64,000 bases of DNA, taken from assembly GCA_017654855.1 (NCBI GenBank), contig CM030336.1, positions 4,588,001 to 4,652,000 of the forward strand. Direction: 5' to 3'. Source of the DNA: Podospora anserina. Its lineage: Eukaryota. The position numbers were made by a program, and so were the translations under genes. Positions 12,245 to 41,508 of the stretch are shown piece after piece (position 1 is the stretch's first letter; each line of letters starts with the position of its first letter). Under the pieces are notes generated by a model that was not told the DNA's origin, did no database searches, and saw nothing but the letters and a program-made list of their open reading frames with translations.

Positions 12245-12255
12245 GGACCCGAGTT
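12245..12255. promoter_or_regulatory. Cluster promoter motif GGACCCGAGTT (AKR/SDR divergent promoter)
   Basis: Exact reverse complement of AACTCGGGTCC. Confidence 0.75.
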
Positions 12256-12381
12256 CAACGCCACCCGCCTTACATCCGTACATCCGACAGCGTCGCGCAT
12301 ATAGGGGGGGTACCTAATCCAAAACTCCGAACAAGGCAGGTCGATTCTTCCACCCCCTTCCCATCCCTTTTTATTCACACC

Positions 12382-13345
12382 ATGGTTGCCTTTGATCCTT
12401 CACGCCTGGGCGTGAACTTCACCTCCCAGACCCACAGCGACACATATGCCCAGATTGATCCTTCCGGCATCACCCCCGCGCCATGCATTGGAAGGACAAT
12501 CCTCGTTACCGGCGCCGCCAAAGGCATCGGTCGAGCCATTGTTGCGTCTTACGCCAAGGCGGGGGCCAATCGCATCGCCATCACCGCCCGCGGGGACGTA
12601 TCCGCCACCCATGCCGAGGCCCTCCAAGCAGCTGCAAAGGCGGGGAGAGATGACGTTGAATTTCTCATCCTCCGGCTGGACGTCAACGACCATGACACCA
12701 TCGAGGCATGCGCCCAGGAGCTGGCCTCTAGGTGGGGGCACATTGACATTCTTGTCAACAATGCGGGATACCTGGCACCGTTTGTGCCATTGGGCGAAGG
12801 GGACAGGGATGACTGGTGGTTGACGTGGGAGGTCAACGTGCGTGGTGTCTACTGGGTCATTCGTGCGCTTCTACCTCTTATCCTGAAGAGCAAGGACAAG
12901 ACGATTGTCAATCTCACCTCGGTCGGAGCCCTGGCGCTGACCCCCGGTGCGAGTGCCTATCAGCCGTCTAAGCTGGCGGTGCTGCGTTTGTCCGAGTATC
13001 TGATGGTGGATTACGAGTCCAGGGGCCTGCTGGTGTACTCTGTTCACCCGGCGTCAGTGGCGACTGATCTCGCTAACAATATGCCAGCAGAAATCGTTCA
13101 AGGTTGGTCATCACCCCGCAGAGTGTTTGAGGTTACATACCGCAGCTGACAAGAATTGAACGGCAGCTGTGTGTCATGATACTCCTGAGCTGGCCGGTGA
13201 TAGCATTGTGTTTCTGACCAGCGAGCGACGGGAGTGGTTGGCTGGGAGGTATATCAGCTGCGCTTGGGATATGCCTGAGCTGATGGCCAGGAGAAAGGAA
13301 ATCGTAGAGAAGGATCTATTGAAACTTCAGGTCCGGTTTCAATGA
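12382..13345 (+). CDS. Short-chain dehydrogenase/reductase
   Basis: TGAAKGIG, NNAG, catalytic YQPSK and VHPASV. Intron ~13103-13166, then exon 2 ...DTPELAGDSIVFLTSERREWLAGRYIS...RFQ, stop TGA 13343-13345. Confidence 0.9.
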
Positions 13346-13820: not shown

Positions 13821-14003
13821 TGAACCCACCTTGGTGTTGACTGTCCTGAGAAATCAACATCACAGAACTCAGGTCTGTCCTTCGCTCGGTGGTTCATAGC
13901 AGTTAATAGATAGCCAATTGATTCATGGTCAGTGCACATTCAGTCCATCTTGAAGATTTGCAAGTACAGCATTTGCCGTGTCGAAAATAACTGCAATCAC
14001 ATC

Positions 14004-15964: not shown

Positions 15965-17650
15965 TCAACGCCAAGCGTCCAGAGATTGGGGAATGGGGTG
16001 ATACGAGCTGAACACGCCGCGGGGGTCAAACTTGTTCTTGACCGCGGTGAGGCGCTGCTGGCGCCACTTCTCGCGTCCGTACAGCTGTGAAAGAGGCTCA
16101 TCGCCATGAGCATAGTTTTGGTAGATGTGAGTCTCCTTGTATCCAGAAACCTTGGGCTGGGCAAAGTGATCCCTCCAGCGCTTGGCAAAAGCATCCGCAG
16201 CCTTTGAAACAGAGGTGTCGTCAAAGGCAATTTCAAACTCGACGAGATGCTCAACACCATCACGGTGGGGGAAGGCGCTGTAATCGTCGGGAAGCTTCTT
16301 GATGCCTTGCTGAGCAAATGTCTCGACCAAGAAGGTGCTGGAGTTGGCAGCCGGGTTGGCCTTGATGAAATCTCCGAACTCGCTCCACAGCCGTACAAAT
16401 GAGGGGGCATCCAGCCGCTTGGTGCCCAGGCCGTACATGACGTGGTTCTGGCCCTTGGCGCACTTGATCAAGGTGATGCCACCGGCGCCCTTGATGGGGA
16501 GCTCGTCCCAAGAGTACATGTTTTCTTCGACGGAAAGGCTGTAGTTCTGGAAGCGGCGAGTGTACTTGCGTCCCTCTTCCCGGGGGCCGGCATAGACGAG
16601 GTTAAGCGCCACAATGGTCTGTCACGAACATGTTAGTACTAATCTTTCATCCAAAATCACCACCTATAGGTGGGTACTCACCTCGAGAGTGCTAGGATCG
16701 ACACTGCCAACCAGAATCAAAGACAGTGGCGCAGGGAGCGGGACAAGAGCGTTCATGTCGTCAATGATCTTCTTGACCTTATCGACGCTGAAGGCCAGGT
16801 TTGCCTCGTAGTGCATCCCACCGTTCACAGCGGGATATGTCTGAAATGTGGTTTCGATGACAACGCCAAAGTTCTGGCCAGCACCACGTACGGCCCAGAA
16901 CAAGTCCTTGTTGACCTTTTCTGAAGCCTCAATCACAGTGCCGTTCCACAGAGCCATGCGAACCTTGCGGACGTTGTCGCTTGTTAAACCGTGGAGACCC
17001 TGCAGCCTGCCGACACCACCGCCCAACATGGCTCCAGTTGCCCCAACGCAGGGACAGGACCCGGTAGCTGGTTGAAAAATGTTAGATCAAGAATGGAGTT
17101 TGCAGATGGAGTTGCTTTGACTTACTGACTTGTCTTCCAGCAGCCGCCAGAGGCCGAATCAAGTCCAAAAAGGTGGCACCGCTGCCAATGGTGGCCGTCC
17201 CGTCAGCGTTGACCCTGGAGTAGTTGAACTTCTCCATGTTGATCATGACCACATTTTGTGCGGCAGCGAGCTCGATAGAATAGCCATGCCCACCTGACTT
17301 GGCGAGAAACGAGATGTTGTTGCTTGTCATGTACCGAAGCTGTCATGCGTTAACTGAAAGTGTTCCAACAGCTTGTGGTGATGAAAACACACCCCCTCAG
17401 AAAGGACTTGCTCCGTCTCTGGGAGAAAGACTTGGTTGAAGCTTGGAGCCATGTAGGCATTCCATCTCTGGGACTTCTCTCCAAAGGAAGGCCAAGACGA
17501 GTTGAAAACTGAGTCGTCTATGGAGGTAGGCCAGCCGGTCTCTTGGCGCTCGAACCCGGCCCAGTGGACTGGTAAAGCCCCACTGATGACAGGCGAGGCG
17601 GCCCACAAAAGGGAAACGAGAGAACGAACGACGTTGCTGCTGCCAACCAT
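15965..17650 (-). CDS. FAD-linked oxidoreductase (berberine-bridge/VAO type) with a predicted signal peptide
   Basis: Hydrophobic N-terminus; KSGGHG (covalent FAD His); LGGGVGRLQGLHGL, DLFWAVRGAGQNFG; C-terminal BBE motif YQNY...KNKFDPRGVF. Confidence 0.9.
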
Positions 17651-20060: not shown

Positions 20061-21925
20061 TCATCTCCGAGACTTAATACGAACATGGAATCCCGAAGGC
20101 ATCGTGAACCACTTTGTCTCCAGCGTCCACTCTCGCTCGGGGTTCAGTAGCTCAAACTGTGTGTATCTAGACTCAGCATAGAGCTCGCAGAAAGTGCAAG
20201 AATGTCATGTTCACTTACCTCGTACCGTTGCAACAACGAGGGGATGATCTTGTACACCTCAAAGTACGAAAGATTCTTGCCCAAACACACGCGGTGACCG
20301 GCTCCAAACTGACGGAGTTAATCTCAAGTAATCGCATTACAGGGTGGACGAGGGAAGAAACGCACTGTCAACAGCGAGTTATACATAGTCCTCTTTTTAT
20401 CCTCACCGCACATCCAACGCTCGGGTCGCCAGACATCAGGGTCATCTCCGTAGAGGCCTACTTCTCGGTGGACTGCCCATGGATTCTTGTGGGTAGTACA
20501 GGGTTAACAAGGTGTAAGCATATGCTCGCTGGGACAGCCTTACCATAGAGACTCTCGTTCCTGGTGGAATAAAGTACCCATCAACCTCCAAACCGCTTTG
20601 AGGCACAATACGCTCCAAGGGAAACCCAATCGGCGGATGTAAGCGCGACGCTTCTTTCACGCAAGCATCGAGATATGGCAACCGTTGTGACTCTTTCCAT
20701 GTCACCAACTTGGAGATACGTCCTTCCCGTGCGGCACTGCCAATCTCCTTTTGCAAGGTAACCAGCGTTTTGGGGTTCTTGAGAAGATGATACAGCACCA
20801 CGCTTGCCATGATGCTGGTGGTGTCACCGCCTGCTTGGATGTTGGAGTTTGTCCACGTGGGGAGGGCACTAATGGTCGTAAGTTTTGGATATTTGGCTGA
20901 CTTTGGTGCAAGTACTCACAGTTCAGGAAGAGTAGGATCTTTCCCAGCCTCACGGATGAAAGCGGAGAGGTAGTCCTTCTGGTTGATGTTTTCACGCTCT
21001 TCCTCTGTCAACGCAAGCCGCTCCTGGATTCGTGCCGCGCCGAACTCGGCGAGAGGATTCCTCTTGGCAGAGACTGGAATGAGCGGGTTGTCCTTCCAGA
21101 ACTTGTCCAGCCATGGTGTCTGAGTGTTCTTGTATCGTCGTTAGTGCTCGTAGAGACAAGTACAATCTCACTGTCATAGGGTAAATATGAACTCACCGCT
21201 GCCACATCTCGGAAATATTTCCAGTTATTCTCAATGACACCCTCGATATCACCACCCTTTTCAAGGAACCCCAATCGTCTTGAAAAGGTAACCTCGCCCA
21301 TGATGTCAAACGTGAAGAGTTGCAGCCAGTCTGAGAGGTTAAACCCCCGCCCCTTGTCAGTAAACATCTCATCGAGTCTGGAAAAGAAATACTCGATGGT
21401 GGAGACGACCAGCGGTTCAAACCTCGTCAGGTTTGCGATGGAGTAGAGGTTAGCAACTGGTCTTCTCATGCGCCTGTGAAGGTCCTCGTCGCGGGTCGCA
21501 AAGACATCGGGAATCTTGGCGCCTTTCATACGGGGTAATATCGAGTCGTAGAACTCGGACTGAGATATGCCGGATGAGAATTAGAGCCGTTGAAGCGGCA
21601 GACAAGACCGTACCTTCAGGAACTTGGCCTTGAAACCATAAATCTTATCAACGGCATCGGGCTGAGAGATGAGCACGGCATTGGGACCAACCCGGACGAC
21701 GGTTCCATAGCGACGATGCAGATCAGTATGCTTCTGATGGACATCTCCCGCCGCAACCCATGATCGGCGGACAAAGTCGGTGAGTGCGGCGGATGCCGGG
21801 CCGGGTATGTGACTGAGCCTGGAATGGGTGTGCAGTAACCGGAGGATGACAACACCCGCACCAACGGCAAGGAGGATACTGCTCAGGTTCGCGGTTCGAT
21901 CAGTAAAGCCCTTTAGGACATCCAT
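20061..21925 (-). CDS. Cytochrome P450 (pisatin demethylase-like, multi-exon)
   Basis: N-terminal TM anchor and HIPGP; I-helix AGGDTT; ExxR (KEASR); heme motif FGAGHRVCLG at ~20280-20309; stop TGA 20061-20063. Confidence 0.92.
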
Positions 21926-24570: not shown

Positions 24571-26006
24571 ATGTCCGGCCAGGTTTCTAGGCGGGAACGA
24601 AGGTGGTGGACGAAGGACGAAGACGACATTCTCAGAGATTGGGCCAAGGTGCAAAGTACCAACCCCTTCCATCACAAGCCTCGGTGAAGTATTTGTGTGA
24701 ATCTCGCTGACTTGGTGGGCAAAAGTCGATACACACGGCGCTGTCAAAAACTGGAATGAGGTGGCAGCTTTGCTGCCTGACAGGACGAACAAGGATTGCC
24801 GTAAGCGATGGCACAAGGTACGAGTCGATATCAAGAGGGGGGCGTGGACCCCCGACGAGGATAGGAAGCTACGACAGGCTGTGGCGCAGGCTGGATTAAA
24901 GTCAGTGTGTCCCTTGATACACTAACATGTATCTTGTCACCTGACTTGTCATTAACTGGGAGCAGATGGTCAGCAGTGTCCAAGATGATGCAAACGCGGA
25001 ACGCCGACCGTAAGTCGTTCCATACCTATCTGTCAAGCTGTTGGTTCCGAAATATCTGACAAGAGATGATTGCATCCTACGGGCAGAATGCGCCAAAAGA
25101 TGGCAACACGTGCTCGGGCCGGACCACAGACATGATCCCTGGACCCCTGAAGAGGATAGAATACTACAGGAAGCAGTTGCGAAATATGGCAACAACTGGA
25201 AGCAGATTGGACTGTTGGATCTGCCAGATCGCTCAACCCATGATATTAGAAATCGGTAAGCACGAACCAACAAGACCACCGGCCGCCCCCATCCCCCCCC
25301 CCCGGTTCCCAGTTGGCGCTAACAGATCTTTGGGTGCAGTAGCGTCGCCTTAAATCGACGGAAACGTCGGTCCAGGGCCCCATCGAATGACGACCCTTCC
25401 ACTTCAACGCAATATCTCTCGGACGACAACGCAGACGACAACAGTTCGAGCGGCGAAGAATCCGACTTGAGCTCTGATGATGCCGAATTAGCCAACTTGA
25501 ACGAGGACCAACACATGATGATGGAAGTCGACGCCGCCCCGGCCCCACCAACACCCACACTGTCGGAAACCTTGGCAGATGCGTCCATCTTTTCCAACTG
25601 GGAAATGGCCAGCCCGGCAACAATGTTGACGCAGGTGCGGCCGCTGGATGCAGACTCCCATCCGTGGCTTTGGTTCTCGACTGAATCAAGCTCCTCGGGA
25701 CAAACTCCCGATCAGCACCTCTCGCCGGAAAACCTGAGCCTGGCGTTTGAGAGTGGCCAGGACATGGGTCACTTGATGGGTGGCGCGGAGATTCAAGTTG
25801 CTCCACAAATTTCCCAAAACGAGAACCCTCAGAGTGCTGCTCCAGCAACGCAGCAGCCACCCCAACAAGACTACCGAGGACAGGCTGAAGCACCTGGAAG
25901 TGTCACTGTTCTCCTGAGGCAAGCTGACTCGCAGCTCGCACAGCAGGTTATTGGCAATCTGTTAAACCTCAATGCAGACGTGGTAATCCGTCTGCTCAAA
26001 GACTGA
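24571..26006 (+). CDS. Three-repeat Myb/SANT transcription factor (probable cluster regulator)
   Basis: Spliced reading: MSGQVSRRERRWWTKDEDDILR...NWNEVAALLPDRTNKDCRKRW; GAWTPDEDRKLRQAV...WSAVSKMMQTRNAD.CAKRW; PWTPEEDRILQEAVAKYGNNWKQI...RSTHDIRNR; then an acidic C-terminal region. A 5'-UTR intron acceptor lies near 24490. Confidence 0.88.
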
Positions 26007-26268
26007 TGGCTTTGCTCCACATTGTTGACTTGGCCAGTCAGGGGCACATTCAGGGGTATTTTCTATGCATGGACCGAAGTGGTCGTGGTCTTCATTTTAA
26101 TGTACATCGAAGGGCCTGTCTCTTAGCATATATGGAATGTTTGGTCAAATACGAATCATGTAGCAGCCTACTGCTCTATCATTGTAATATCTTTGTTCTG
26201 GAGTTAACATTGACCGAGTTGAATGACGTTAACAAGGTTGCTCGCAATTACCACTGTTTTCTGTTAGC

Positions 26269-26302
26269 AGACCCGAGTTGTTGGCACGCGCGACTCGGGT
26301 CT
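26269..26302. promoter_or_regulatory. Inverted pair of cluster motifs upstream of the NRPS-like gene
   Basis: AGACCCGAGTT (26269-26279) and GACTCGGGTCT (26292-26302) form an inverted repeat. Confidence 0.7.
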
Positions 26303-26441
26303 CACTCTTGAACGAGCCAGAGTCCCATTCAACACCATATTGACAGAATATTTTGCAATGTCACTTAAAGTCTAATCTTGACTGCAAAACCACTCCTCAC
26401 TGAGACCAAGGCCACAAGACATTCCAAAAGAGGCCGTTCCG

Positions 26442-29400
26442 ATGCGTGCTTTCATTCCTGCGAGGGTGACTCTTGAGCCTGACCGACAAGATGCCATCCG
26501 TTCTCTCTCCGACATTGTCGAGTTCCACGCCGAAAAGAATCCCGACTACTTGTTTTGTGTTCAAGCTGAAAAGAAACCAGGTCTTGATGGGTACTCTTTG
26601 AGCCGTGTGACTTATACCACCCTGAAGTGGGCTATTACGAACTGCTGCCAATGGCTCGAAGCACATTTGTCTCATCTTCAACAACGTACTCGGCGGGGGC
26701 AAGGTGATGCTGATGGATCACAAGGACCGATAGTCCTACTGATGGAGAGCGATCTCGGTCTGGCCGTCTACATCCTGGCTCTTATGAGATTGGGCATACC
26801 GGCGGTTCTGCTCTCAACAAGGCTCAGCGCGACCGCAATTCACCATCTCATCGGGCGCACTGGAGCCACAACAGTCATTGCCTCGCAGCGTCTCCGTTCG
26901 ATGCTAGACGAGCCAACCCCGGCGGTCGATACCAAGTTCCAGAATGGTGAACCCCAAAACAAAGGCCTTCAGGTCTTTACCGCCGCCGGGTACCAAACTT
27001 TCCTGAACGACCTGGACTCCCCTCTGGAGACCAATGTGTCGGTGCAGACCACCAATCCAGCGCTAATTCTGCACTCATCCGGCACATCTGGACTCCCAAA
27101 ACCAATCTACTGCACCCACGCCCACTTCCTCGCTTTCTCTCAATGTCACGAGTTTGAAACGGCAGAACAACGCCAAGGTCTAACCGTCTCGTCATCGCCC
27201 TTCTTTCACGTAAGCGCCTCCCCCTTCAGGTTCACAACACAGCCGCGCAGTTACCTAACCACCATCATAGGGCTTCGGCCTAGTACCAATGTGCCTCTCC
27301 CTCGGCATCGGCAAAACCTTCTGCATTCCCCCCTCCTCCGAACTCCCCACCGGCTCCTCCATCGTCCAGCTCCTCCAAGCCTCCAGCTCCAAAGCCCTGC
27401 TGACTGTCCCTTCACTTCTCGAAGACATCGCCTCCCTCCCAGACAACAAAGGAGTAACCGCCCTCCAACAACTCGATTTCGTCGCCTTTGGAGGCGGCCT
27501 CCCGAAGCCTTCTATCGGCCAACGTCTTAATGCAGCAGGTGTAAGACTCATCAACCACTACGGCGCGACCGAGACAGGACCCCTAACCCCGTTTTTTGTC
27601 CCGCCTGCTGGACATGACTGGCGGTTTATTCGGTTGAGAAGGGATATTGACTACGCGATGGAGGTGGAGCTGATGCCAACGACAACAGATGGTGAATTTT
27701 TAGGTCGGGCGTATAAACTCAGCATGCGGCCATTTGGCTGGACAGAACGCTTCGAACTACAAGACTTGCTCCTCGCTCGGGAGGGTTTCCCTGGGGAGTT
27801 TCGTATCGCGGGACGAACAGACGATCTCATTTGTCTTGCTACCGGGGAGAAGGTCCGCCCGACGATGCTGGAGACTATCCTCCAACAGCATGACAAAGTC
27901 AAGACTGCCGTTGCGTTTGGGGATGCGCAGTTCGAGATTGGGGTTATTGTTGAGACGACAACGAGGGAGGTGGCTGACGGGGATGAGCTAAGGGGGGAGA
28001 TATGGCCTCTGGTGGAGGAGGCAGGGAGGCAGATGGATGCCCATGCGAGGGTTTCTTCCCCGGCGGCGATTTTGTTTGTTGGTTCTGGGGCTCTGCCGAG
28101 GTCGGATAAGGGGACTGTGTTGAGGAGGGAGGTGAATCGGGTTTTTGAGAGGGAGATTGCGGGCGTGTATAGGTGTATTGATGCTATGGCCAGTGCGCCG
28201 GCGTTTGATCTTTCTTCGCCGCGGGAAAGCGTCAGGGGTTTGGTCAAAGCGGTGATGGCGTCTAGGGGTGGGTATTGGTCGGATGAGGATGACTTTTTCG
28301 AGCTTGGGATGGATAGCTTGCAGGCGACGAGGTTGCGGAGACTGTTGGTTGCTTCGCTGAGAGCGGCCGCGCAAGAAGGTAGAAATTGGGAGGTGGATGT
28401 TAGGAACGTGGCTGACGATGTTGTTTATCGCAATCCTTCTGTCAGTCGGCTTGCTGAGGCCATTGTAACGCAAAACACAATTCAGAATGGGCTGTCGAGC
28501 TTGGGTCACCTGGAGCAAATTGCGGACAGGTACTCCAACGTGACTTCAGAAACCATTGCGCAACGGGCAGTCGTGGTCATGACCGGCAGCACTGGAAGTC
28601 TTGGGTCGTTTATTCTGGCACAACTTGTCAAAGTCCCGACAGTGGCCGGGGTTATCGCTCTCATCAGACCCTCAGCCGAACCAGCGCAGGAAAGGCAGAA
28701 GAATGCCTTGAAAGCCCGAAACATCGAGCTGTCTGACTCAGAGTGGTCAAAGATACAGATCTACGGGGCAGACGTGGGGGCGCCCTTTCTTGGCCTGGAC
28801 AGTGGCGTGTACCAGCAAATCGCATCCAAAGCCACACATGTGGTGCACGCTGCCTGGCCAATGAACTTCAACATGTCCCTCCAGTCTTTTGGTTCCGCCT
28901 TTCGAGCTCTGCAGAACTTGATACAGCTAACTTCCGAGTCTCACCGACTCCAGCCATCGAAGAGACCTCGCTTTCTATTCATTTCATCCATATCCACAGT
29001 CGGGAACTATCCCTCTCTTCACAAAGAGCGTCTTGTGCCAGAAGAGGCTGTCAGTGGCCAAAACTGCGCTCTTGAACTGGGGTACGCAGAAGCAAAGTTG
29101 GTATGCGAGAAGATAGTCGAGCGAGCAGCGCGCGATTACCCCCAGATCCAGACAGGTTTTGCGCGTGTGGGCCAAATCGCCGGCTCTCGGAGTGGATATT
29201 GGAACGTGGATGAACATTTTGTTGCGCTTGTCGCCTCGTCGTGCAAAGTCCGCCTCATTCCAGATCTTCAAGGGGTGAGTAGAAATGGAACGTGCCTTGG
29301 TGAAAGTGGCCTTGCTAACCAGATGCTCAGACTCTTTCTTGGCTGCCAGTCGATGCTACTGCAGCAGCGGTAGTCGATATTTTGCTCAACGATCAGCCAC

Positions 29401-29735
29401 CGGAGCTTGTCTACCACTTGGAGAACCCAGTACGGCAAAGCTGGCATGAAATGATCACGCTCTTGTCCAGTGAGTTGGGGTTCGCTTCTACACAAGTGGT
29501 GTCGTTTGAGGAATGGGTGGAAGCTGTCATGTCAGCGCCAGATCAGGGTAACCCTGCGAAGAAACTGTCGCGTTTTCTGAAGAATGAGTTTCGCAAGATG
29601 TCGTGTGGAGGGATAATCTTGGACACCGTCTTGGCTCGGAAGGCTTCACCTACACTGAGAGGATTGGGGCCAGTTGACAGTGAACAGGTGCGGCTGTATA
29701 TCAAGTACTGGAAGCATAGCGGTGTGCTGGGTTGA
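26442..29735 (+). CDS. NRPS-like carboxylic acid reductase (A-T-R)
   Basis: A domain ILHSSGTSGLPK, HYGATETG and GRTDD...GEKV; T domain LGMDSL; R domain TGSTGSLG, HAAWPMNF and GYAEAK. Introns ~27210-27270 and ~29275-29330. Confidence 0.93.
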
Positions 29736-30466
29736 TGATAGGGTACATACGGGGATTATTTGCTCCATAAACTCACACCAAAGCATTGCTATGAAATGTG
29801 ACGTGAGATCATGTACGTATCAAGCGAGGTAATCCGATAGCCAGTGTGTAAGCTACCTAAAGTAGGTTGCTGTTACATAATTCTTGAATGACAACAGCTT
29901 GGTTACCTACACAACTGGTAGAGGGCACGAGGTCCGAGGTCTTTGATACCTAAACTGTGATGTAGTGGATCAAGCCCATGATAGCCTTCGTCACTGGGTA
30001 CCTCGTGAGCGATAGGCGCCTTTTGGGTAGCCGACAGATACGAGAACGCCGCCATCATGGATGCTATCTTAGGTTCCTACCTACATACCGGCGGAGTGAT
30101 AGGATATCTTGCGGCAATTACCTTGAATCATCTTATAGGTCTTTGATAGAATGCTGCTTGTGCCTGTCGAGGCTGCTGGGACCCGAGCTGGGTCTGATGA
30201 GCGAGGTGACCTGCACTGGGATTACCGCTTTGAGGAGAAACTCTAACCCTACAATCCAACAACGGTATTCAACTTCCTCGGTAGTGACCAGTTTCTTGAT
30301 GGTAGCTGACCAAACTCGACATAGAGCTTGTTATTCGAATATAGCAATTCTTGCGAGAAACCAGGTTTGCATACTAGTGGTTATCGGTCACACTGCCTTA
30401 TTTGCGCTGGACTAAGCTCTCACGAGGATCCGTGTCAAGACTGCGTGGTGACATCCCTTCAAGCAC

Positions 30467-30477
30467 GGACCCGAGTT
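30467..30477. promoter_or_regulatory. Cluster promoter motif GGACCCGAGTT (PKS promoter)
   Basis: Exact 11-mer ~230 bp upstream of ATG 30708, with the variant GGACCCGAGCT at 30179-30189. Confidence 0.75.
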
Positions 30478-30707
30478 GACACCCCTGAGATCAAGGTCGA
30501 TCCAGGCTGTTCTTGTCCTTATGGGAACGTTGAGTTGCTGTCTTGATAGCGGTTGATATCTTAAGGAATAGTAAGCTTCTGGTGCTCAACTTGATCGCAG
30601 CAACCAAAACCTCCATTCAACACGAGGAGTCACTCAGCAAATTGGCTGACAAGACCTACACATCCACCTCACATTGGAAATTTGGCTCAACGCCACCAAC
30701 CACAGAC

Positions 30708-33700
30708 ATGGCCGCAACATCAGCTTACAGCGCCACCAACGATATCGAAGATTCACCGGCCAATGCGATTGCCGTCATCGGTATGGGTTGCAAGTTTCCC
30801 GGGGCAGAGTCAGTGGAGGAATACTGGAAGCTACTGGATTCTGGCTTGTCCATGGTCACCGAGGCGCCGACCGGGCGCTTTCCCACCAGAGACCACAGAC
30901 GCAGCACAGAAAAGTCTGTTTTCCTGGGCAACTTCCTCAGCGACATCGAACATTTCGACAACCGGTTCTTCAAAAAGTCAAGCCGAGAGGCAGCATCAAT
31001 GGACCCACAACAGAGACTTCTTCTTGAAGTCGCTTACCAAGCCTTGGAGTCGTCTGGCTACTTTGGCCCACGAGAGAAGGACACCGAGGTCGGCTGTTTT
31101 GTGGGGGTGTGCGCCTCGGACTACAACGACAACGTTGCCAGCCATCCACCCAACGCCTTTTCTACCCTTGGTACTCTGCGGGCATTCCTGACGGGAAAGA
31201 TCAGCCACTTCTTTGGCTTCTCTGGCCCGTCGGTCACGTTCGATACCGCATGCTCGTCATCGGCTGTTGCCATCGATGCCGCCTGCAAAGCCATCATTCA
31301 CGGCGACTGCACGAGTGCCATTGCTGGTGGTGTCTCCATTTTTACAAGCCCGCATTTCTACCAAAACCTCGCCGCTGCGTCCTTCCTCAGCCAGACGGGT
31401 GCCACCAAGTCCTTCGATGCCGGGGCGGACGGCTATTGCCGCGGGGAAGGTGTTGGCCTAGTCGTCCTCAAGAGTCTGCCAAAAGCCTTGGCGGACGGAG
31501 ACACCATTCTTGGCACAATTCTGTCCACTTCTGTCAAGCAAAGCAGCAATGTCGTGCCTATCACAGTGCCCTACAGCCCCTCACAGGCAGCGCTCTATCA
31601 TAGGGTGCTCAAGATGGCCGGAGTGAGCCCTGAAGATGTTTCCTACCTCGAGGCACATGGAACAGGCACGCCTATCGGTGATCCACAGGAATTCCAGGGC
31701 ATCAAGGAAGTCTTTCAAAGCCAGACACGGACAGGGCCTCTGTACTTTGCTTCGGTCAAAGGCAATATCGGCCACACAGAGGGGGCATCCGGAGTTGCCG
31801 GCCTGATCAAGGTCCTCCTCATGATGCAGAAGAGAGCCATTGTTCGACAGGCAAGCTATTCCCGGCTGAATCCCAAGATACAGCTCGATACCAGCCAATT
31901 TCGGATTCCGACAGAGACGGTTCCGTGGAAATCCGACGTCCTGATCGCTTGTGTAAACAATTATGGGGCGGCGGGTAGTATTGCCGCCATGGTCGTCAGG
32001 GAAGCAACCGGACCAAGTCCTGGCAGGGGAAACAAGTCGTCGGCAGCCCTTTCCAAACACCCACTGCTGGTATCCGCAAACAGCGCAAAGAGTCTGGGGG
32101 AAAACTGTGCCAAACTGCGACAGTATCTCTCCTCTTTCAACGCCTCGTCAAGTACCAATGTCCTTGCCGACATGGCCTACAACCTCAGCGACCACCAGGA
32201 CCGATCACTGCCAAACATGTTCATAACAGCGGTATCAAGCATGTCAGAACTGGACGATCAACTCCGCATTGCAGCCTCCACCCCAGACTCTCAGCTGTGC
32301 CGTCTAAACCCTTCTCCAAAGCCGGTCGTGCTCATCTTCGGTGGTCAGACAAGTCGCTTCATCGGGTTAAGCAAGAGCGTCTACACCGGCTCAGCCTTGC
32401 TACGCAAATACCTGGACCAGTGTGACAAGGTTCTCAAAGGGCTTGGTCACGGAGGAATCTACCCGGCTATTTTTGACTCGACGCCCATTGATGACGTGGT
32501 GCAGTTACAGACCATGCAGTTCGCCTTGCATTATGCCTGCGCCCAATCCTGGATCGCATGTGGCCTCAAAGTCGACTGCGTCGTGGGTCATTCCTTTGGC
32601 CAGCTCGTCGCCTTGACTGTGGCTGGTGTATTTTCGCTCCAGGACGGACTCAAACTTGTTCATGGCCGGGCTGTCCTGATGCGTGACAAGTGGGGTTCGG
32701 AGAGGGGCACCATGATCGCGCTCGACGCCGACCATGGCAATACCATGGGACTGATCTCATCAGTGAGAAAGACAATGCTCTATTCTGGGCTCGAGGTGGC
32801 CTGCTACAATGGACCTCGGAGCCATGTCCTGGTGGGTTCTTCAACTGAGGTGGAGGCTGTGATCGAAGTTATCAAGAAGTCAACAGCGGTCAAGTACAAG
32901 GTCCTGAATGTTACTCACGGATTTCACTCCCGCTTTTGCGACTCTATCATCCCCGGTCTTGAGGCGTTGGCAGCGTCTTTGACATACAACACACCCAAGA
33001 TCAGGATCGAGACGACCTCAGATCGAGAGACATGGGCTGCCGCCACACCCAAGTTGATCGCCGACCACACGAGGACGCCAGTGTACTTTGAAGATGCCAT
33101 CAAGCGGATAGAGGCCAGATATGGGTCTTGCACCTGGGTTGAGGCTGGCTCGAACTCATCCGTTACGAGCATTGCCCGTCGATCACTGTCAGATGCTGAG
33201 AGCCGAGACCATCTCTTCTGCCCCGTCAATCTCAGCCGGGAAGATGCCCTGGGCGCCCTGGCTGATACCGTCACGAACTTGTGGAAGAATGGAAACCAAG
33301 TGCAATTTTGGCCATTTCATCGCATTCATCAAGCAGATTATCTGCCGTTGAACCTACCGCCATATCAGTTCGAAAAGGTCCGACATTGGCTGGACTTCAA
33401 CTTTGTCGTAGAACAGCCGAAGCCAGTGCAGGCGCAAGATCAGATCACCGAGACAGTGCCAGTGGTCGAGCCTGAGCCAGTCTTGATCACCTTCTCGGGA
33501 TTTGACGTCACTCACGCCACGCAACGTCGCGCCGTCTTCACCATCGATCCACGCAGTCAGGAATGGCGGACGCTCGTTAGTGGACATGCCGTCCTCCGGC
33601 AACCGTTATGTCCAGCTCCGTTGTATGTCGAGCTTGTCTTGCAGGCTGTCAAGATGACTGCTGAAGCAGAAGGGATATCGGCGCTTACATTTGGGCAGCT

Positions 33701-36700
33701 GGAGGGCCTTGAGATAACATCTTCGTTGGGCACGAGTGATGACAAGATTATCAAGCTTGTCTTGGCCCCTTCGGACGGAGAAAGGTTCAGATGGGACTTT
33801 TCGTTCCACTCACAGCCGCGGGGCGTCAACACTTCCGCAAAGCCAGCCACCCATGCCGTGGGCAGTGTCAAAGTCATCACCACCCAAGACGACAGCACAA
33901 CATCTGAACTAGATCGAATCTCAAGGCTCATCAGGCACCGCGACTTTGATGAGGTAACCACTCGGGTTGACGGCGAGGCTGTTCAGGGTTCACTGGTCTA
34001 CAAGGTTTTCTCCAGAGTTGTGCAGTATCATGACTTTTACAAGGGTGTGCGTCAAGTCGCCGGCCACAATGGAGCGGTGGTGGCTCAGGTCGTGCTGCCA
34101 GCGGAGCAACCCCCTGTCACACAAGGACTTCTGTCGAACCCAGTCGCAGTCGACAACTTCCTTCAAGTCCCGGGGCTCTACGCCAATTGTCTTGGCCCAT
34201 GTCCAGCGGATGAGGTATTTGTTTGCACCCAGGTGGACCGACTCTGTCTCTCGCGAGACTTTGAGGGTACAGCCAACAAGACTTGGAAGGTTTGCGCCAC
34301 ATCTACGGCAACATCCGACAGGGAGAGCGTCAATGATGTGTTGGTGTTTGAGCAGGAGTCAGGCAAGCTTGTTTTTGTCGCCTTTGGGGCGCATTTCAGC
34401 CGAGTTCGCATCACGTCGCTGGCAAAGGCGCTTTCGCGGGCAAATCAAGGACAGACCACGGCTTCTGTCGGTACCAATGGCATCACCAACGGCATCACTC
34501 GGCCCGCTTCTCCACCTCTTGTGGCGCCACCTAGCAATAGACAAGACCCTGTCAGTCCACATGACACTCTCCAACAACATCCAGTTGTTGCCACTCCTGC
34601 CCTGCCGAAGCGTCCTGCTGGCCCAGGCATCGAGCAGGAGTTGCGGGAGCTGCTCACCAAGGTCACCGATGTGCCAGCCGATCAGTTCAAGGGAGATGTT
34701 ACACTTGCCGATCTTGGTATTGACTCGCTGGTAACCACAGAGATAGTGTCCGAGGTGGACCAGATCTTTGGTATTTCTATCCCTCAAGACCAACTGCAAG
34801 ACCTCCAAACCTTCGCCTCCCTGTCCGCATACCTCGCTGGCCGTCTGGGTCGGGAACTGCAAGACACCCCCACAGTCGTTCAAACCACGGCTTCCAGCGA
34901 GCAGCGCCAGACACAGCCAAGTGCTTCGTCCTTGGAGGCGGCTCCCACAGCCCCCGAGCGTGGGAGGCCAAGGGACTCTGAGAATTTGCTCCCAAAGCTC
35001 GCCAGCCTTTTAGCCAGCCATCTTGAGTGCTCTCCCGCTGATTTTGAACGGTCCACGAACCTGGCAGATCGCGGTCTTGATTCTCTGCTCTGCATCGAAC
35101 TCATGAGCGACATTGAAAAGACATTCGGCGTGTCAGTCGACCTGGCACAGCTCACATCCGAGAGCACCTTTGGAGACCTCGCCGGCATGTTCGTCAAGGT
35201 CACTGGCCGTGATGTGTCCCCATCAGATACAACAAACTCAACCATCACCACAACACCGACACCAGCAACACCTAGCTTTGAGCCAAGAATCATCCCCCAT
35301 GATCCCTCAGTCAAAATTCCACCACGCCCAGTTCCCACAAACACAGACCGCAGGTTTCAGGCCGCTCCCGATGCGTTTGAATCCATCAAGGACCAGTTCA
35401 GTGACCTCGCCGACGCATACCATCTGACCGACTTTTACAAAAACGTCTACCCCAAGAACGCACGTCTCGTCCTTGCTTACACAGTCGAAGCATTCGCGGA
35501 TCTTGGTATTGATCTCAGCAGTTTGCCCACTGGTGAGGAGATTCCACCCCTGCCCAGCCTTCCCAGACATCACCACCTGCGAGACGTCCTTTATGAAGTC
35601 CTACGGGACGGAAAAATCGCAGATTACAACGGCAAGACCTACGTCCGCTCCGACGAGCCCATCGACAAAGTCCGCTCAAGCCAGCTGTTCAACGAACTTG
35701 TCCAGGAGTTTCCTCAACACGCCAAGGAGCACATGCTGCTGAACCTCTGCGGCGCAGAGCTGGGGAAGCTGATTAGCGGGGCAAAAGAGCCACTCACTGT
35801 TCTTTTCGGATCCAAGAAGAACCGCGATATCCTTGAGGACGTCTACAGTACCAGTCCCATGTACGTCATCATGTCACAGCTGCTCACGCGCTTTCTTGAA
35901 AAGGCTCTGAGCGGCGCCTCACCCGGCCCAGATGGTGTATTCCGAATCATTGAGCTCGGCGCTGGAACAGGATCAACCACCAAATGGGTTGTCGACCGGC
36001 TTGTGCGGTGTGGCATCCCAGTCGAGTACACTTTCACCGATATCTCGCCCTCGCTCGTCTCTGAAGGGAAGCGCAAGTTTGCCAAGTACAACTGCATGAG
36101 ATACGCCACCATCAACATCGAAAAGGAGCCCCCGACTCAGTACCACGGCCAGTTCGACATTGTCCTCTCCACCAACTGCATCCACGCCACCTCCAACCTG
36201 CGCCGCTCTCTCACCCACATCGACAAGCTTCTCCGACCCCACGGCTTCGTCTCGCTTGTCGAGTTCACAAGCCGCATGTTCTGGTTCGACCTGGTGTTTG
36301 GCCTCCTCGAAGGCTGGTGGCTCTTCGACGACGGCAGACCCTATGTCCTCGCCAGCCCCGAGTTCTGGGAAAAGTCCATGCGCTCAAGCGGCTTCCAACA
36401 CGTTTCCTGGACAGGCAGCACAACCAAAGAGTCCGAGATCGTCCGCGTCATCACCGGCTTCAAGCAACCAGTCGACAACCCCGCCCTCTACCGCAGCACG
36501 CCACAAGAAACCACCGGCGAAGTCGAAACCCTCGTCTTCACCCATGTGACAGACAAGAACCTCCCCCTCCGCGCAGACATCTACCACCCAACCCCACAAC
36601 AAGCCGCCGCCCAAAAAGACTGGACTGTAGGTGCGCCACTCTCAAACCCACCACCACCACCACTCCTCCCCACCACCTCACTAACATCCCCCCCTACCCA

Positions 36701-37606
36701 GCCCTGATAATCCACGGCGGCGGCCACGTAATGCTCTCCCGTAAAGACATCCGGCCCCGCCAAATCCACCACCTCCTCTCCCACGGCCTTCTCCCAATCT
36801 CAGTCGACTACCGCCTCTGCCCCGAAACAACCCTCCTCACCGGCCCCCTCCCCGACATCCTCACCGCCCACACCTGGGCCCGTACCTCCCTCCCCACCCT
36901 CAAACTCCTCAAATCCTCCATAACCATCAACCCAACCCACACAGCAGCAATAGGTTACTCAACCGGCGGCCTCCTAGCCATGTCCCTGTCCTGGACCTCC
37001 CCCCCCCCCTCCGCAATCCTCTCATTCTACTCCCCAACAAACTATCAATCCCCCTTCTGGCAAACCCCCAACATCCCCTCCCACTCCCATCCATACACCA
37101 CCACCCCCTTCAACCTCCTCGACTGCGTCCAACCAAACCCAATAACCTCCTACAACATCCCCCCCAATCTCCTAGCAGCAGGAGGGTGGATGACCCCCTC
37201 CGACGCGCGCAGCCGTCTAATCCTTCACATGAACTGGCACGCCCAAACCCTGCCCGTCTTATTCCGCGGTCTACCCCCCGCCGGAACCCCCCACCCAGAG
37301 AGCTACACCTCCATGCCACAGCCAGCAGAAGAGGAAATAATCAAAGCGAGCCCCTACGCGCAGGTTATAAGGGGTAACTACAAGTCCCCTACGCATATCG
37401 TTTTCGGGACAAAGGACGATCTGATACCCTGGCAGCAGGCCGAGGAGACGGTCAAGGCAATGAGGGAGCACGGGGTGGATGTGGGCTTCACGCTGGGGGA
37501 GGGGGAGCCGCACTTGTTTGACATGTACAGAGACCCGGATGGCAAGAGATGGGGGTACGTGCTGGAGGGGTACAGGTTTCTGTTGGAACGGGTGGGGAGG
37601 TTGTGA
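30708..37606 (+). CDS. Non-reducing polyketide synthase KS-AT-PT-ACP-ACP-CMeT-esterase/TE (methylorsellinate synthase type), with no SAT domain visible
   Basis: KS DTACSSS, EAHGTGT and GNIGHTE; AT GHSFG and HGFHS; PT GHAV and AVDNFLQ; ACPs LGIDSL and RGLDSL; CMeT ELGAGTGS. Intron 36631-36701 joins an HGGG/GYSTGG/GTKDD/EPHLFD alpha/beta-hydrolase release domain. Confidence 0.95.
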
Positions 37607-37789
37607 GGAATGGGAGGGAGGGAGGGAGGGAGTAGGCACCTCTCCAGAACCAGAGGCGTTGGATAAAACCTTTTCGAAGGCATCTAAACTTGGTGGAACG
37701 ATGCAAAATATAGGCCAACTTCCTATCCGATTCACATTCGTTAAAACAAAGTGCAACGCTGGCTGATGCTTTTCCAACAACGAACACCA

Positions 37790-40234
37790 TCAAATCATGC
37801 TCACAAATCCGCCACCCTGGAGGAATCGTATCTGTTGCTCCTTCAAATCAGCCCAATTCCTCAACTCCTGCTCTTCATCTTCCAACAAAGGAGGCGGTAA
37901 CATCCCACTCAGTTGGCCAAAGTGATCAAAATGCAGATTATGTGCGTGTTGCGGGTTGATTGTCGGCGCAGCCCTCTCCAATCTCATCAAGATATCCACA
38001 AACTTGCTTAGTGGCTCCTCAGCCTTTTGCGCAACAGGACCCTTCCGATCCGGGGCGCAGTTCAGCAGAGTTGATGCGACTTGGCGAATCTTGTTGATGA
38101 GACTGCTTCCGTTGGGCTCCATGTTACGTTGCGTGATGGAAGTGAGGACCGTCAGCAGGTTCTGCACGATTAGCTCCCGCTCATCAAACATCTGTGCATC
38201 AATGGGATCCTGCTGCTGAGCAGCTGCGTGGAGGGCGGCGGCGGCGACCGACTTAGAGACCGCATCTGACCCCAGAGCGCCATCAGTTCCGTTACCATTG
38301 ACAGCGTTCTCGGTAGCATATGCCTGTGCCTGTGCGGCTTGGGCAGCTTGGACTCGTGCTTGTTCGCGGTGATTGTCGCGGAGGTTGAGGTAACGCTCAA
38401 CATAGTAGGAACGCGTCGCCAGCTGAGAGGCATATATATTCGCTTTCTGGATCTCGTACTGCAAACGCCTCGTCTCGGCATCTTGCGAACTCGCCTGTGT
38501 CTGGACGGGAAGATAGTCGGGTGGTAGGTAGACATAAGTATTTCCTGTGTCGTAGTAGTTTGTAGCATTCGGCAAATCCATGCCGGATAGGCTGCTCCCG
38601 TCGTTCGTATGTTGGCCAAGATTGATGGTCAGCTCTGGCGGTAAGTGATCCATGACCTGCTTGACAGCCCCCAGACAGTCATCCAGCATCGATCTTTGAT
38701 CATGAAAGCCCAGCGAGGATATCCCGTAAGACAGTTCAATGCTGACCAGACCGTTCATGGTCATGTAGATTTTGATGCCCTGGATGAAGCCCGTCATTAG
38801 GGACACGACGCCTTCCGGTTGTACAAGGATTTGATGTGGAAGAATGTATTGATCGTCGACCTCGGCAGGGAACTCGGGATATGGTTCGGCCGGGGTAGGT
38901 GGTGGAAAGATGATTTCACTATGAGGCGCGCCGATCTGTACCATGGATCTGACACCGACAAACATGCACCAAAAGATGCGCTTGCCCAGCTGGTCTTCAA
39001 CGTGGTTGAACGATGGCCCTCGATAGGTAACCCCAAACATGTGCGACCCCGTTTCTCGCGGCTTGTGATAACCCATCTCGCGGATAAAGTCCATGGTTTG
39101 GCTCATGAACCGCCGGCAGACTTTCCATTGCATGGTGTACCCCGCTGCCAGACCGAGAAAATAGCTAGTCGCAGCATCGTAGACGGTGATATCATCCTTG
39201 TAAGGAAAGGCCGAACCACGAGCTTCGGTTGCGACAACACGACATCTTTCGATGAAGTTGATGGCTTTGGGAAACATGGCCAGCCCGTTAGGATGGTGTT
39301 TGAGATGCAGCCGAGCAGCACGTGGGAACGAGGCCACTAGACACCCAATCATGCTGGCCAGCAGGGCGAGGAACTCTCGGCTTGTCCTGTCTTCGCGTCT
39401 CATGAAAGAGTTTCGAAACGTGGGCTCGTGGGGGAAAGGCGCTAGCGGGTGTATATACCTGAAGAAATCGTCCACAAGAGGGACCAGCACCTCGAATGGG
39501 GCTATGAGCTCAGCGGACCACACAGGCTGCGCACCATGTAGCCCAGCAATGGATATCAGAGTCTCGGCGGCATTGTGCGGTCCTGGGCTCAGATTCGGCT
39601 CGAGGCGGGGCTGCTTTGCGGCTTTGGCAGCTTCGGCGTGTTTGTTTGGTGGCCCTCGGCGTTTCATGGTGCGGTTGAAGGTGCAGTCGACACCAAGGTC
39701 GCGACATGGGCGGCATGGCTGCGTCTCATCGCACTGGAAAGAAGAAAACTCGTCAGTCGGGAAGCACATAGAGACACTTGGGAGAAGAGGATGTGCAACC
39801 TTAACCTTGCGCTGACTACACATGTCACAGGCTCGGCGCAAGCGGGTAGCTTTCGAGGCGGCACCTGGAGGGGTTGCAGAACCGCCCTGGGATACTGGTG
39901 GCTGACCTGATGGGAGCCCGGCCGGTGGATGGTATGGCAAGCCATCAGGATGCGGTACATAATGTGAGGCTGGCGAAGATGCGGGTTGTGCGAGGGCTAA
40001 GGGGGTGGTTGGCGGTGGGGGCCCTGCGACGGAATCTTGAAGGGCCTGTAAGCTGTGATGGGCAACAGCAGAGGCAGCAGCATCGGCGGCATATTGGGGA
40101 TGTGGTTGAGGCTGGGTCGCGAGGTCGTCGGAGTCGTTGTGGGCAACAGGTTGTGATGGTGCGGACGTGTCGTTGGTGGGGACCTGGGCGTCGGTGGTGT
40201 TGTTGGAGGGCGGTGGTGGATAGTTGGATGACAT
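37790..40234 (-). CDS. Zn(II)2Cys6 transcription factor with a fungal TF middle-homology region
   Basis: RACDMCSQRKVK|CDETQPCRPCRDLGVDC once the 66-nt intron 39734-39799 is removed; FFRYIHPLAPFPHEPTF; KRIFW. ATG 40234 (MSSNYPP). Confidence 0.92.
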   Translation of the reverse strand: MSSNYPPPPSNNTTDAQVPTNDTSAPSQPVAHNDSDDLATQPQPHPQYAADAAASAVAHHSLQALQDSVAGPPPPTTPLALAQPASSPASHYVPHPDGLPYHPPAGLPSGQPPVSQGGSATPPGAASKATRLRRACDMCSQRKVKVAHPLLPSVSMCFPTDEFSSFQCDETQPCRPCRDLGVDCTFNRTMKRRGPPNKHAEAAKAAKQPRLEPNLSPGPHNAAETLISIAGLHGAQPVWSAELIAPFEVLVPLVDDFFRYIHPLAPFPHEPTFRNSFMRREDRTSREFLALLASMIGCLVASFPRAARLHLKHHPNGLAMFPKAINFIERCRVVATEARGSAFPYKDDITVYDAATSYFLGLAAGYTMQWKVCRRFMSQTMDFIREMGYHKPRETGSHMFGVTYRGPSFNHVEDQLGKRIFWCMFVGVRSMVQIGAPHSEIIFPPPTPAEPYPEFPAEVDDQYILPHQILVQPEGVVSLMTGFIQGIKIYMTMNGLVSIELSYGISSLGFHDQRSMLDDCLGAVKQVMDHLPPELTINLGQHTNDGSSLSGMDLPNATNYYDTGNTYVYLPPDYLPVQTQASSQDAETRRLQYEIQKANIYASQLATRSYYVERYLNLRDNHREQARVQAAQAAQAQAYATENAVNGNGTDGALGSDAVSKSVAAAALHAAAQQQDPIDAQMFDERELIVQNLLTVLTSITQRNMEPNGSSLINKIRQVASTLLNCAPDRKGPVAQKAEEPLSKFVDILMRLERAAPTINPQHAHNLHFDHFGQLSGMLPPPLLEDEEQELRNWADLKEQQIRFLQGGGFVSMI

Positions 40235-41508
40235 GATAATGATAAGCTTCAGTGACGTCCGATAATCGCACAATATAACTGGCCCAGCGCACTTTTACGG
40301 CTTCACTCCGGGTGATTCTGCCACTGGCGATTTTTCGGCGAAGGTCCGGGAGAATCACGGATCTTTTTTTGCGCCAAACCAAACGACAACATCCACAGGG
40401 GCCTGAGAAGTCACGTGGCTACCCGGAGCTGCCTTATCGGTTATCATCAGCCTATCAATCCCACCATCCTATCGCCATAGCCCACAAAGTGCACGGCCCT
40501 TTTGCATTCTGAGTCCAATTTGCAAGGGCGCCCGGACCACCCGAAGCACCAGTATATATTCGCGGTTCCCCTCCAATTCTTTCCACTTTCCCTTTCTCTT
40601 TTCTTCTTTATACTTACCTTGGCTGGCCTCCGGGAGATCATGAATTCCTAGAGGTATGTCGAAGAGCCTTCATTGCACATCGAGGAGTTTTTCGTCATTG
40701 TTTGCCCTTCGGGGTCGACAGGGCTGTAATTTTTGATGTTTACTTTTTTTCATTGTGCGCTTGACCTTTGTTGAGCCATGAGGAAGAAGCAAGATCTGGC
40801 AGCTTGCAGTGTTGTTTGACCGTGTTTTCTGCGATGATATGTCACCATGTTGGTGTTCTGGTGTTCATTCCCGTGTTTGACATTGATGTTGCCAATTCTA
40901 CTTTTTCCGGAGTTGAGAGTACCTACCCACAGAGTTTCACATCTAACAGTGTGGTGTGCAATACCCGCAAGGGCTTACCATCATTTACGATCGATATTAA
41001 TGGTCGTCCATTTATATTAAGTAATACTTGTTTGCCTTTGGGCGATATTGTTCTCGAAAGGCTTGCATTTATCTTGCAGTTGCGTATAACATCCTAGTTA
41101 AACTAGGAACTGCTGGCTAACTCCAACTGAAACGATGACTATGCTGTATGCCTGGGTATGCAGCCTGTGGTCAGGATCTGGATGGATAATAACCGGAGTC
41201 AAAGACTTGGTGATCAACAGGTCATTTTAATGCGTAAAGTCGAAACCAGGCTGTGTGGCTGGAGGAAAGACTGGGGGGGACTGCTTCTGTTTTGGTGGAA
41301 AAAGAGGGCAGAAGCATGAACGAAGCTCTGTTGTGTGGCGAGAAAAAAGCCAGGCAGCCACCTCACTTCGACACCTGGTCGCACCTTCCAAAACCAAAAC
41401 TTTGTCAATTTTTGCAGCACCGAGGGGCTGAAACTCGGAGTCCTCTAACAAGAACGCCAATCGCTCATGCTACCATAACAAGTTCTACCTCCTCATCCGT
41501 TTCCCCTC

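Follow-up and report, generated by a model that had tools for sequence, protein, structure and literature searches.

The polyketide synthase gene and its domain composition

The 64,000-nucleotide stretch of Podospora anserina DNA analyzed here (contig CM030336.1 of assembly GCA_017654855.1, positions 4,588,001 to 4,652,000; hereafter the window, with positions counted from its first letter) hosts a gene cluster in which a polyketide synthase gene of the non-reducing type (NR-PKS) directly follows, on the same strand, a gene encoding an aryl-acid reductase resembling nonribosomal peptide synthetases (NRPS-like). Our subject is this polyketide synthase (PKS), which begins with its ketosynthase (KS) and lacks a starter-unit (SAT) domain. 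The textbook minimal NR-PKS consists of SAT, KS, acyltransferase (AT), product template (PT), and acyl carrier protein (ACP) domains, while group VI enzymes such as PkbA/CicF, ATEG_03629, MpaC, and AusA follow the layout SAT-KS-AT-PT-ACP-ACP-CMeT-TE, including a C-methyltransferase (CMeT) and a thioesterase (TE).

The gene extends from the ATG at 30708-30710 to the stop at 37606, and its product starts with MAATSAYSATNDIEDSPANAIAVIGMGCKFPG. This ATG is the first one within an open frame of 30534-36707, and the in-frame gene model yields an uninterrupted reading frame of 2275 aa. Pfam analysis revealed the domain order KS-AT-PT-ACP-ACP-CMeT-TE with the KS match starting at residue 19, in agreement with the approximately 18 codons between ATG and KS recorded in a first-pass annotation of the window. 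The 16 Pfam families matched by the protein include neither the SAT family PF16073 nor any ketoreductase or enoylreductase family. Inspection of the catalytic motifs showed them to be intact in KS, AT, PT, both ACPs, CMeT, and TE. The KS-AT core displays DTACSSS, EAHGTGT, NIGHTE, and GHSFGQ, and a PT with a His/Asp dyad is recognizable at sequence level between AT and ACP, its SGHAVL and VDNFLQ motifs being conserved in the SAT-bearing fungal enzyme P0208. Furthermore, the CMeT matches the citrinin PKS CMeT (PDB 5mpt) with 286 bits, and the TE region in homologues reads WTV(A/G)L..HGGGH.

Over 1966 aa the protein is collinear with P0208 at 46% identity, the KS of the latter starting only at residue 380; the PKS thus descends from a C-methylating lineage of the orsellinic acid type minus its first domain, rather than being bacterial-like or reducing. 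The arrangement ACP-ACP-CMeT followed by an Abhydrolase_3-type TE is likewise collinear with group VI-like members. All domains and homologies fit an NR-PKS except for the absent N-terminal SAT. Agreement of the N-terminus with the Cercophora samala orthologue P0007 (93% identical, same start) completes this picture: the PKS is a complete gene with a natural SAT-less architecture rather than a truncated gene model. A bacterial-like KS was considered on the basis of a PDB search, which placed bacterial CurL (459 bits) above PksA (371) and CTB1 (349) and included no closer fungal relative. It was ruled out by KS identities of 61-68% to SAT-bearing fungal relatives in comparison to at most 42% to bacterial matches.

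Search for SAT-coding sequence

The stop of the upstream gene ends at 29735, leaving 972 bp to the PKS ATG, close to the ~970 bp given before. Within this gap the PKS frame is closed by an in-frame TGA at 30531-30533 (+); the first-pass annotation had correctly noted such a stop while placing it just before 30543, approximately 10 nt off. It had also described the interval as holding no recognizable SAT sequence and the cluster as holding no free SAT gene, and both statements held up in every search performed. The Pfam scan (E<=10) of 30 out of 38 six-frame open reading frames (ORFs) of at least 20 aa overlapping 29700-30780 gave no acyltransferase-like match; the other eight comprise the last exon of the reductase, which was scanned separately, and seven short minus-strand ORFs. 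On the scale of the window, Pfam detected neither a SAT nor a second synthase (PKS or fatty acid synthase) in 31 of the 74 ORFs of at least 150 aa.

When the N-terminal parts of 11 relatives served as tblastn queries against the window, the best E was 0.032, inside an unrelated F-box gene, and the best E in the interval was 0.18. A SAT profile derived from five complete SAT regions of relatives was run over all six frames of the window, a wider form of the search that the first-pass annotation had proposed for 29736-30708, and produced a single match (E 0.64, score -5.1). The same profile detected the partial SAT in 15 out of 15 N-terminal pieces of relatives with E values from 8e-27 to 7e-61; a SAT in the window would therefore have been detected. 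A second profile, constructed from up to 185 residues preceding the KS in 20 relatives, reached at best -2.4 bits in the interval, a score attained by 69 of 200 shuffles. One candidate relic at 30227-30433 (+), a tblastn segment pairing with P0214 aa 64-140 at 27% identity (E 0.18), was rejected, with the second profile doing no better than those shuffles. We confirmed that the PKS has no SAT domain and that none is hidden upstream; as judged by these comparisons the interval contains no SAT relic, and a free SAT gene was not detected within the 64-kb window.

Transcript evidence at the 5' end

Contigs of four public runs, whose kind is not on record, were compared over 25500-38500, the kinds assigned to X1-X14 being guesses. 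The contigs contain spliced RNA, as demonstrated by GT..AG joints at 29273|29330 in the reductase gene and at 36626|36702 in the PKS gene, each at a predicted intron. Two contigs from two studies, X1 record 3 (30279-32178) and X3 record 18 (30288-31827), cross the PKS 5' end colinearly with the genome. Both the TGA at 30531-30533 and the ATG are bridged unbroken, and no joint entering the PKS 5' end was found among the contig joints; an upstream SAT exon spliced into the transcript, which the first-pass annotation had named as one finding that would overturn it, is thus not seen. Since contigs can lose minor forms, we regard the colinear 5' end as support and not as proof. The word depth of the transcript data is low (~5-15), and nothing is concluded from stretches that no contig covers, namely 29840-30273 (depth 1-1.8) and 36784-37217 (zero depth in X1 and X2). 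Contigs begin at 30279 in study P1 and at 30288 in study P2, which hints only weakly, if at all, at a transcript start. Authenticity of the interval is supported by the DNA-like runs X15-X20, which contain it with all sampled words (share 1.00).

The transcribed leader carries two upstream ATGs, at 30299 (38-aa upstream ORF, 30299-30415) and 30521 (11-aa upstream ORF, 30521-30556), both out of frame with the PKS ORF. Inside the PKS coding region, X1 and X3 show CT..AC joints at 32856-32919 and 33637-33689 (skipping 62 and 51 nt) with side lengths of 22-30 letters, which could be either introns of antisense transcripts or assembly artefacts.

A conserved clade of SAT-less ascomycete enzymes

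Whether homologues share this layout had been left as a question by the first-pass annotation. The position of the KS start was determined in all stored proteins showing a KS identity of 50% or more (n = 118); leaving out P0004, the window's own duplicate, and 16 N-terminally truncated fragments resulted in 101 rows. In 81 of these, the distance from the start of the protein or ORF to the KS is 5-39 residues, with two exceptions: a model shortened by 7 aa, and P0117, a fused model with a reductase ahead of the PKS. Compared with the window PKS, KS identity is at least 69% in 79 of the 81 rows, and 66% and 61% in P0183 and P0182. The 20 other rows (KS identity 61-68%) possess 109-519 residues before the KS, and these stretches represent SAT, recognized as partial SAT by profile in 15 out of 15 and by precomputed PF16073 in five. 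The five full SAT regions of relatives contain GFCTG. Hence, the answer is divided: the true orthologues are SAT-less throughout, and in the next relatives a full SAT is retained.

With the KS region as query, the matches were named fungal models (2232-2302 aa, 72-93% identity), and with the CMeT region approximately 100 clusters (51-92% identity), none of them carrying PF16073. The first SAT-bearing proteins (P0208, P0210, P0216, P0217, P0221) appeared at ~50% CMeT identity; overall, CMeT-region identity is 47-50% to SAT-bearing members in comparison to 51-92% within the SAT-less clade. In a KS tree (quick IQ-TREE run, SH-like approximate likelihood ratio test (SH-aLRT) support, eight bacterial outgroup rows), a branch with SH-aLRT 100 separates the 81 rows from the rest, and a single change accounts for the SAT label. 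Named NCBI/UniRef gene models (2228-3275 aa, 19 genera) make up 33 of the 81 rows, and the clade is present in the four ascomycete classes checked, i.e., Sordariomycetes, Eurotiomycetes, Dothideomycetes, and Lecanoromycetes. Judged by sequence, this is a large conserved clade of SAT-less ascomycete NR-PKSs that includes the window PKS, and it is best read as the outcome of one ancestral loss of SAT within the methylorsellinic acid synthase lineage.

No strictly fixed difference was found between the clade and its SAT-bearing relatives, while a relaxed screen highlighted two alignment columns. Eight residues after the KS Cys, Asp190 is present in 81 of 81 clade rows versus His in 16 of 20 relatives; five residues after the AT Ser, Val634 is present in 74 of 81 versus Thr in 19 of 20. 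These columns may serve as leads only.

Comparison with known NR-PKSs

With the SAT-bearing group VI-type enzymes P0208, P0216, and P0217 (Aspergillus similis, desertorum, navahoensis), which we take to be of PkbA type, the window PKS shares the order KS-AT-PT-ACP-ACP-CMeT-TE, and these form the nearest branches in the KS tree. They differ in having 360-390 N-terminal residues with PF16073 and GFCTG, of which the window PKS and its 80 clade mates show none.

Naturally SAT-less NR-PKSs are established for basidiomycete clade XII (CoPKS1/4, CrPKS1-3, and also the Coprinopsis CC1G_05377 product; PMC10401856), which likewise carry the KS at the N-terminus and for which priming by KS decarboxylation and/or AT loading has been proposed. 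Malonyl-CoA alone suffices for SAT-less and SAT-deleted NR-PKSs of basidiomycetes, which can accept acetyl-CoA as well (PMC10401856). The clade XII enzymes are unlike the present one in consisting of KS-AT-PT-ACP-TE without CMeT, making hepta-/octaketides or plain orsellinic acid, and forming a separate KS clade (PMC10401856). Membership of the window PKS in clade XII is unlikely because the nearest relatives found are ascomycete SAT-bearing enzymes. On the present KS tree, the SAT loss looks independent of the basidiomycete one and seems to have occurred inside a SAT-bearing ascomycete lineage. For ascomycetes, a SAT-less NR-PKS has been proposed in Cyanodermella (as cited in PMC11149221), and the phrase ‘lacks a SAT domain’ comes up in a Metarhizium paper (PMC6042797). 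Missed SAT domains are also a known theme: domain callers often overlook them in meroterpenoid NR-PKSs, where a long unannotated N-terminal stretch is nevertheless present (PMC8582187).

In respect to these precedents, the uniqueness implied by the first-pass annotation was overstated, since SAT-less NR-PKSs are known in basidiomycetes and the clade itself is already deposited in public protein sets without SAT annotation. A description of the C-methylating ascomycete clade as SAT-less was not found in the open full-text papers searched, and the clade seems to have gone unremarked.

The reductase partner

The reductase gene meets the PKS gene head to tail and encodes the A-T-R domain order of NRPS-like carboxylic acid reductases. 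It contains at least two introns, one at 29274-29329 (joint 29273|29330 in X1, X3, and X4), and its 5' boundary is provisional. An A-T-R gene adjoining the PKS gene is also the arrangement of the NR-PKS/reductase pairs ATEG_03629/ATEG_03630 (PMC4274970), PFICI_00366/PnlA, CicF/CicB, and StbA/StbB, and the chemistry expected of such pairs is the conversion of an aryl acid to an aryl aldehyde (PMC4274970, PMC9605436).

Two members of the SAT-less clade link it to such pairs. PFICI_00366 (P0157) of P. fici, proposed to be paired with the reductase PnlA, is described with a SAT (PMC9605436), whereas its sequence shows the KS from residue 16 and falls in the SAT-less clade. The Aspergillus terreus model P0117 (3275 aa) combines reductase and PKS fused in one annotation. 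Its identification with ATEG_03630 plus ATEG_03629 is probably wrong, ATEG_03629 being given as 2590 aa with a SAT (PMC4274970, PMC8374128) and the PKS part of P0117 having none. Probably P0117 represents the second A. terreus pair, ATEG_07380/07379; ATEG_07379, located beside the reductase ATEG_07380, is listed as ‘HR-PKS KS-AT-DH-ACP-ACP-TE’ (PMC4274970, Table 1).

The last intron and the thioesterase

Two 5' splice sites only 4 nt apart precede the TE exon, GTAGGT at 36627 and the weaker GTGCGC at 36631. The homologue-like 2275-aa protein (‘...DWTVALIIHGGGH’) requires the GTGCGC site, and the TE is translated only with the 36630|36702 splice. An X1 contig runs unspliced to 36641. In Preu6, alternative 5' splice site use that removes the TE is a regulated feature (PMC13476535), and Preu6-beta and ASpks1 share with the present gene closely spaced 5' splice sites before the release domain, one choice leading to a frameshift and a TE-less synthase (PMC13476535). 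For the PKS described here, the TE-less splice is known at contig level from two runs of one study, in which the in-frame form was not seen.

Several clade gene models from Xylariales and Pestalotiopsis (P0177, P0178, P0184, P0191, P0144; Xylaria, Hypoxylon, Poronia, Pestalotiopsis) end just after the methyltransferase, without TE. They are either TE-less paralogues or models stopping at the same intron.

Proposed pathway and alternative explanations

We consider it likely that the window encodes an expressed SAT-less PKS, belonging to a conserved clade across four classes, that arose by one ancestral loss of 360-380 N-terminal residues and for which self-priming and a reductase pathway are proposed. 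The domain architecture, its conservation, the expression of the gene, and the adjacent reductase are results of the analysis, whereas the chemistry is inferred. In this proposal, the acetyl starter would either be generated by the KS, which would decarboxylate malonyl-ACP, or be taken from acetyl-CoA through the single AT. The chain would be extended three times and C-methylated, undergo PT-directed C2-C7 cyclization, and be set free by TE hydrolysis as a methylated acid of the orsellinic type. The A-T-R enzyme encoded upstream in the same orientation could then reduce this acid to the aldehyde, which might be tailored by the cluster monooxygenase, P450, short-chain dehydrogenase/reductase (SDR), aldo-keto reductase, and other enzymes. 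Priming by malonyl decarboxylation or AT loading, as suggested in the first-pass annotation, appears reasonable by analogy with the basidiomycete SAT-less NR-PKSs (PMC10401856). With somewhat less confidence, though still leaning toward it, we extend this proposal to an old C-methylating NR-PKS lineage in at least four ascomycete classes that lost its SAT a single time and has since functioned without one, typically beside an aryl-acid reductase; the His to Asp190 and Thr to Val634 exchanges may mark a switch to self-priming, and the 4-nt splice choice may toggle the TE.

A number of points weigh against our proposal. The product and the priming route are drawn by analogy only, and the ascomycete enzyme ACAS is inactive without its SAT, from which it has been argued that SAT independence does not extend to ascomycetes (PMC10401856). 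The SAT search is limited to the 64-kb window, and a stand-alone SAT or another starter-delivering enzyme may be encoded elsewhere. The clade assignment includes 48 of 81 rows that are ORF calls or shorter models and not curated gene models; these calls are still informative because the same kind of call in SAT-bearing relatives carries the C-terminal SAT half in frame with the KS, and those of the clade never do. The tree provides SH-aLRT values only and came with a tool warning on long bacterial outgroup branches. Finally, the sole spliced form in the contigs is 36626|36702 (X3 and X4, one study), which by frameshift brings in a stop immediately behind the junction (‘...DWTP*’) and leaves 1974 aa with the TE dropped, and no in-frame 36630|36702 isoform was seen in the contigs.

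Three alternative explanations were weighed. It is conceivable, although unlikely, that a starter, perhaps other than acetate, is delivered in trans by a free-standing SAT/acyltransferase or another synthase encoded outside the window, the PKS then lacking SAT in cis only. The inactivity of SAT-deprived ACAS and the reach of our searches speak for it, and the Asp190 and Val634 columns would be equally compatible with an altered loading partner and with self-priming. Then again, nothing SAT-like and no second PKS or fatty acid synthase was found in the 64 kb, the cluster looks complete for an aryl acid/aldehyde pathway, such a partner would need to be retained across four fungal classes, and basidiomycete SAT-less enzymes need none (PMC10401856). 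Still less probable is a decaying or unproductively spliced relic in this strain that yields mostly a TE-less, frame-shifted message and no normal product. The single assembled junction, the weakness of GTGCGC relative to the GTAGGT four bases upstream, and the low word depth are in line with this idea. It is at odds with an open 2275-aa frame with intact catalytic motifs and with the 93% identity to the C. samala orthologue; moreover, contigs lose minor isoforms, so the in-frame form may exist, and a similar TE-removing splice choice is regulated in Preu6 (PMC13476535).

By far the least probable, and largely refuted, is an assembly or gene-model artefact in which SAT exons were missed, misassembled, or located further upstream. 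It draws on the frequency with which domain callers miss SAT (PMC8582187) and on reviews in which related enzymes of A. terreus and P. fici are listed with a SAT (PMC4274970, PMC9605436). The cases reported in the former paper, however, involve several hundred unannotated N-terminal residues, whereas here 18 residues are preceded by an in-frame stop, 972 bp without SAT signal, and another gene. The transcript contigs without a joint into the 5' end, the full representation of the stretch in the DNA-like runs X15-X20, and the same short N-terminus in 81 rows point in the same direction.

A recent view holds that only mushroom NR-PKSs dispense with the SAT and that ascomycete ones need it (PMC10401856). 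A conserved SAT-less ascomycete clade would qualify this view; if true, SAT independence is not a basidiomycete peculiarity. What was known are the basidiomycete SAT-less NR-PKSs, and what seems new here is the conserved C-methylating ascomycete clade. Engineering would gain compact C-methylating scaffolds from it, and together with the SAT-bearing sisters at 46% identity it would offer a natural matched pair to address self-priming of iterative PKSs. Papers and tables assign a SAT to clade members by default, and as a consequence pathway proposals can be misled.

Cluster neighbors and a cluster-enriched motif

Coordinates of the PKS gene, its 5' region, and the neighboring genes, including the predicted tailoring enzymes, are compiled in Table 1.

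Table 1. Features of the PKS locus and its cluster (window positions)
Feature	Position	Strand	Basis or remark
FAD monooxygenase	7172-8662	-	Pfam
Aldo-keto reductase	11209-12024	-	Pfam
SDR	12136-13146	+	Pfam
O-methyltransferase fragment	13914-14438		Pfam
BBE-type oxidase fragment	15968-16621		Pfam
P450 fragment	21011-21580		Pfam
NRPS-like aryl-acid reductase (A-T-R)	26382..29735	+	AMP-binding, AMP-binding_C_3, PP-binding, NAD_binding_4 on three consecutive frames (Pfam)
Intergenic stretch and PKS 5' leader	29736..30707	.	without SAT-coding sequence (Pfam, tblastn, profiles)
Cluster-enriched motif GGACCCGAGCTG	30179..30190	+	word count
Bridged part of PKS 5' leader	30279..30707	+	colinear contigs, no joint
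Cluster-enriched motif GGACCCGAGTTG	30467..30478	+	word count; within transcribed leader
PKS exon 1	30708..36630	+	in-frame model; RNA-contig splice ends exon at 36626 instead
KS	30762..31856, aa 19-383	+	Pfam PF00109, PF02801; Cys182, His317, His356 placed by motif
AT	32331..33197, aa 542-830	+	Pfam PF00698; GHSFGQ, Ser629
PT	33564..34406, aa ~953-1233	+	weak Pfam PKS_DH_N and PS-DH; His960 in SGHAVL, Asp1149 in VDNFLQ; collinear with P0208
Two ACPs	34635..35192	+	Pfam PP-binding, 2 stretches; GIDSL aa 1337, GLDSL aa 1456
C-methyltransferase	35382..36404, aa 1559-1899	+	HTH_51 PF18558 and SAM-dependent methyltransferase PF08242
Last PKS intron per RNA contigs	36627..36701, 75 nt	+	GTAGGT..CAG; joint 36626|36702, X3 record 20, X4 record 27
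In-frame alternative intron	36631-36701	+	GTGCGC..CAG; frame analysis
PKS exon 2, Abhydrolase_3-type TE	36702..37606	+	Pfam PF07859, PF00326, PF01738; HGGGH aa 1979, GYSTGG aa 2059
Fungal-specific transcription factor gene, next to PKS	37793..40294	-	Pfam PF04082

The ‘promoter motifs’ noted by the first-pass annotation at 30179 and 30467 proved to be two copies of GGACCCGAG(C/T)TG. The exact 9-mer GGACCCGAG occurs in 8 copies in comparison to 0.76 expected, a number reached by none of 100 shuffles. All copies (9330, 12245, 13812, 18041, 22057, 23833, 30179, 30467) are located inside the cluster (9330-30475), and most continue with TTG, i.e., as GGACCCGAGTTG. With one mismatch allowed, the word is not enriched (18 matches versus 18.3 expected). 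The exact word is a candidate binding site of the cluster transcription factor encoded next to the PKS gene. One-mismatch copies of GGACCCGAG are found at 26269, 26294, 23808, 22078, and 20420.

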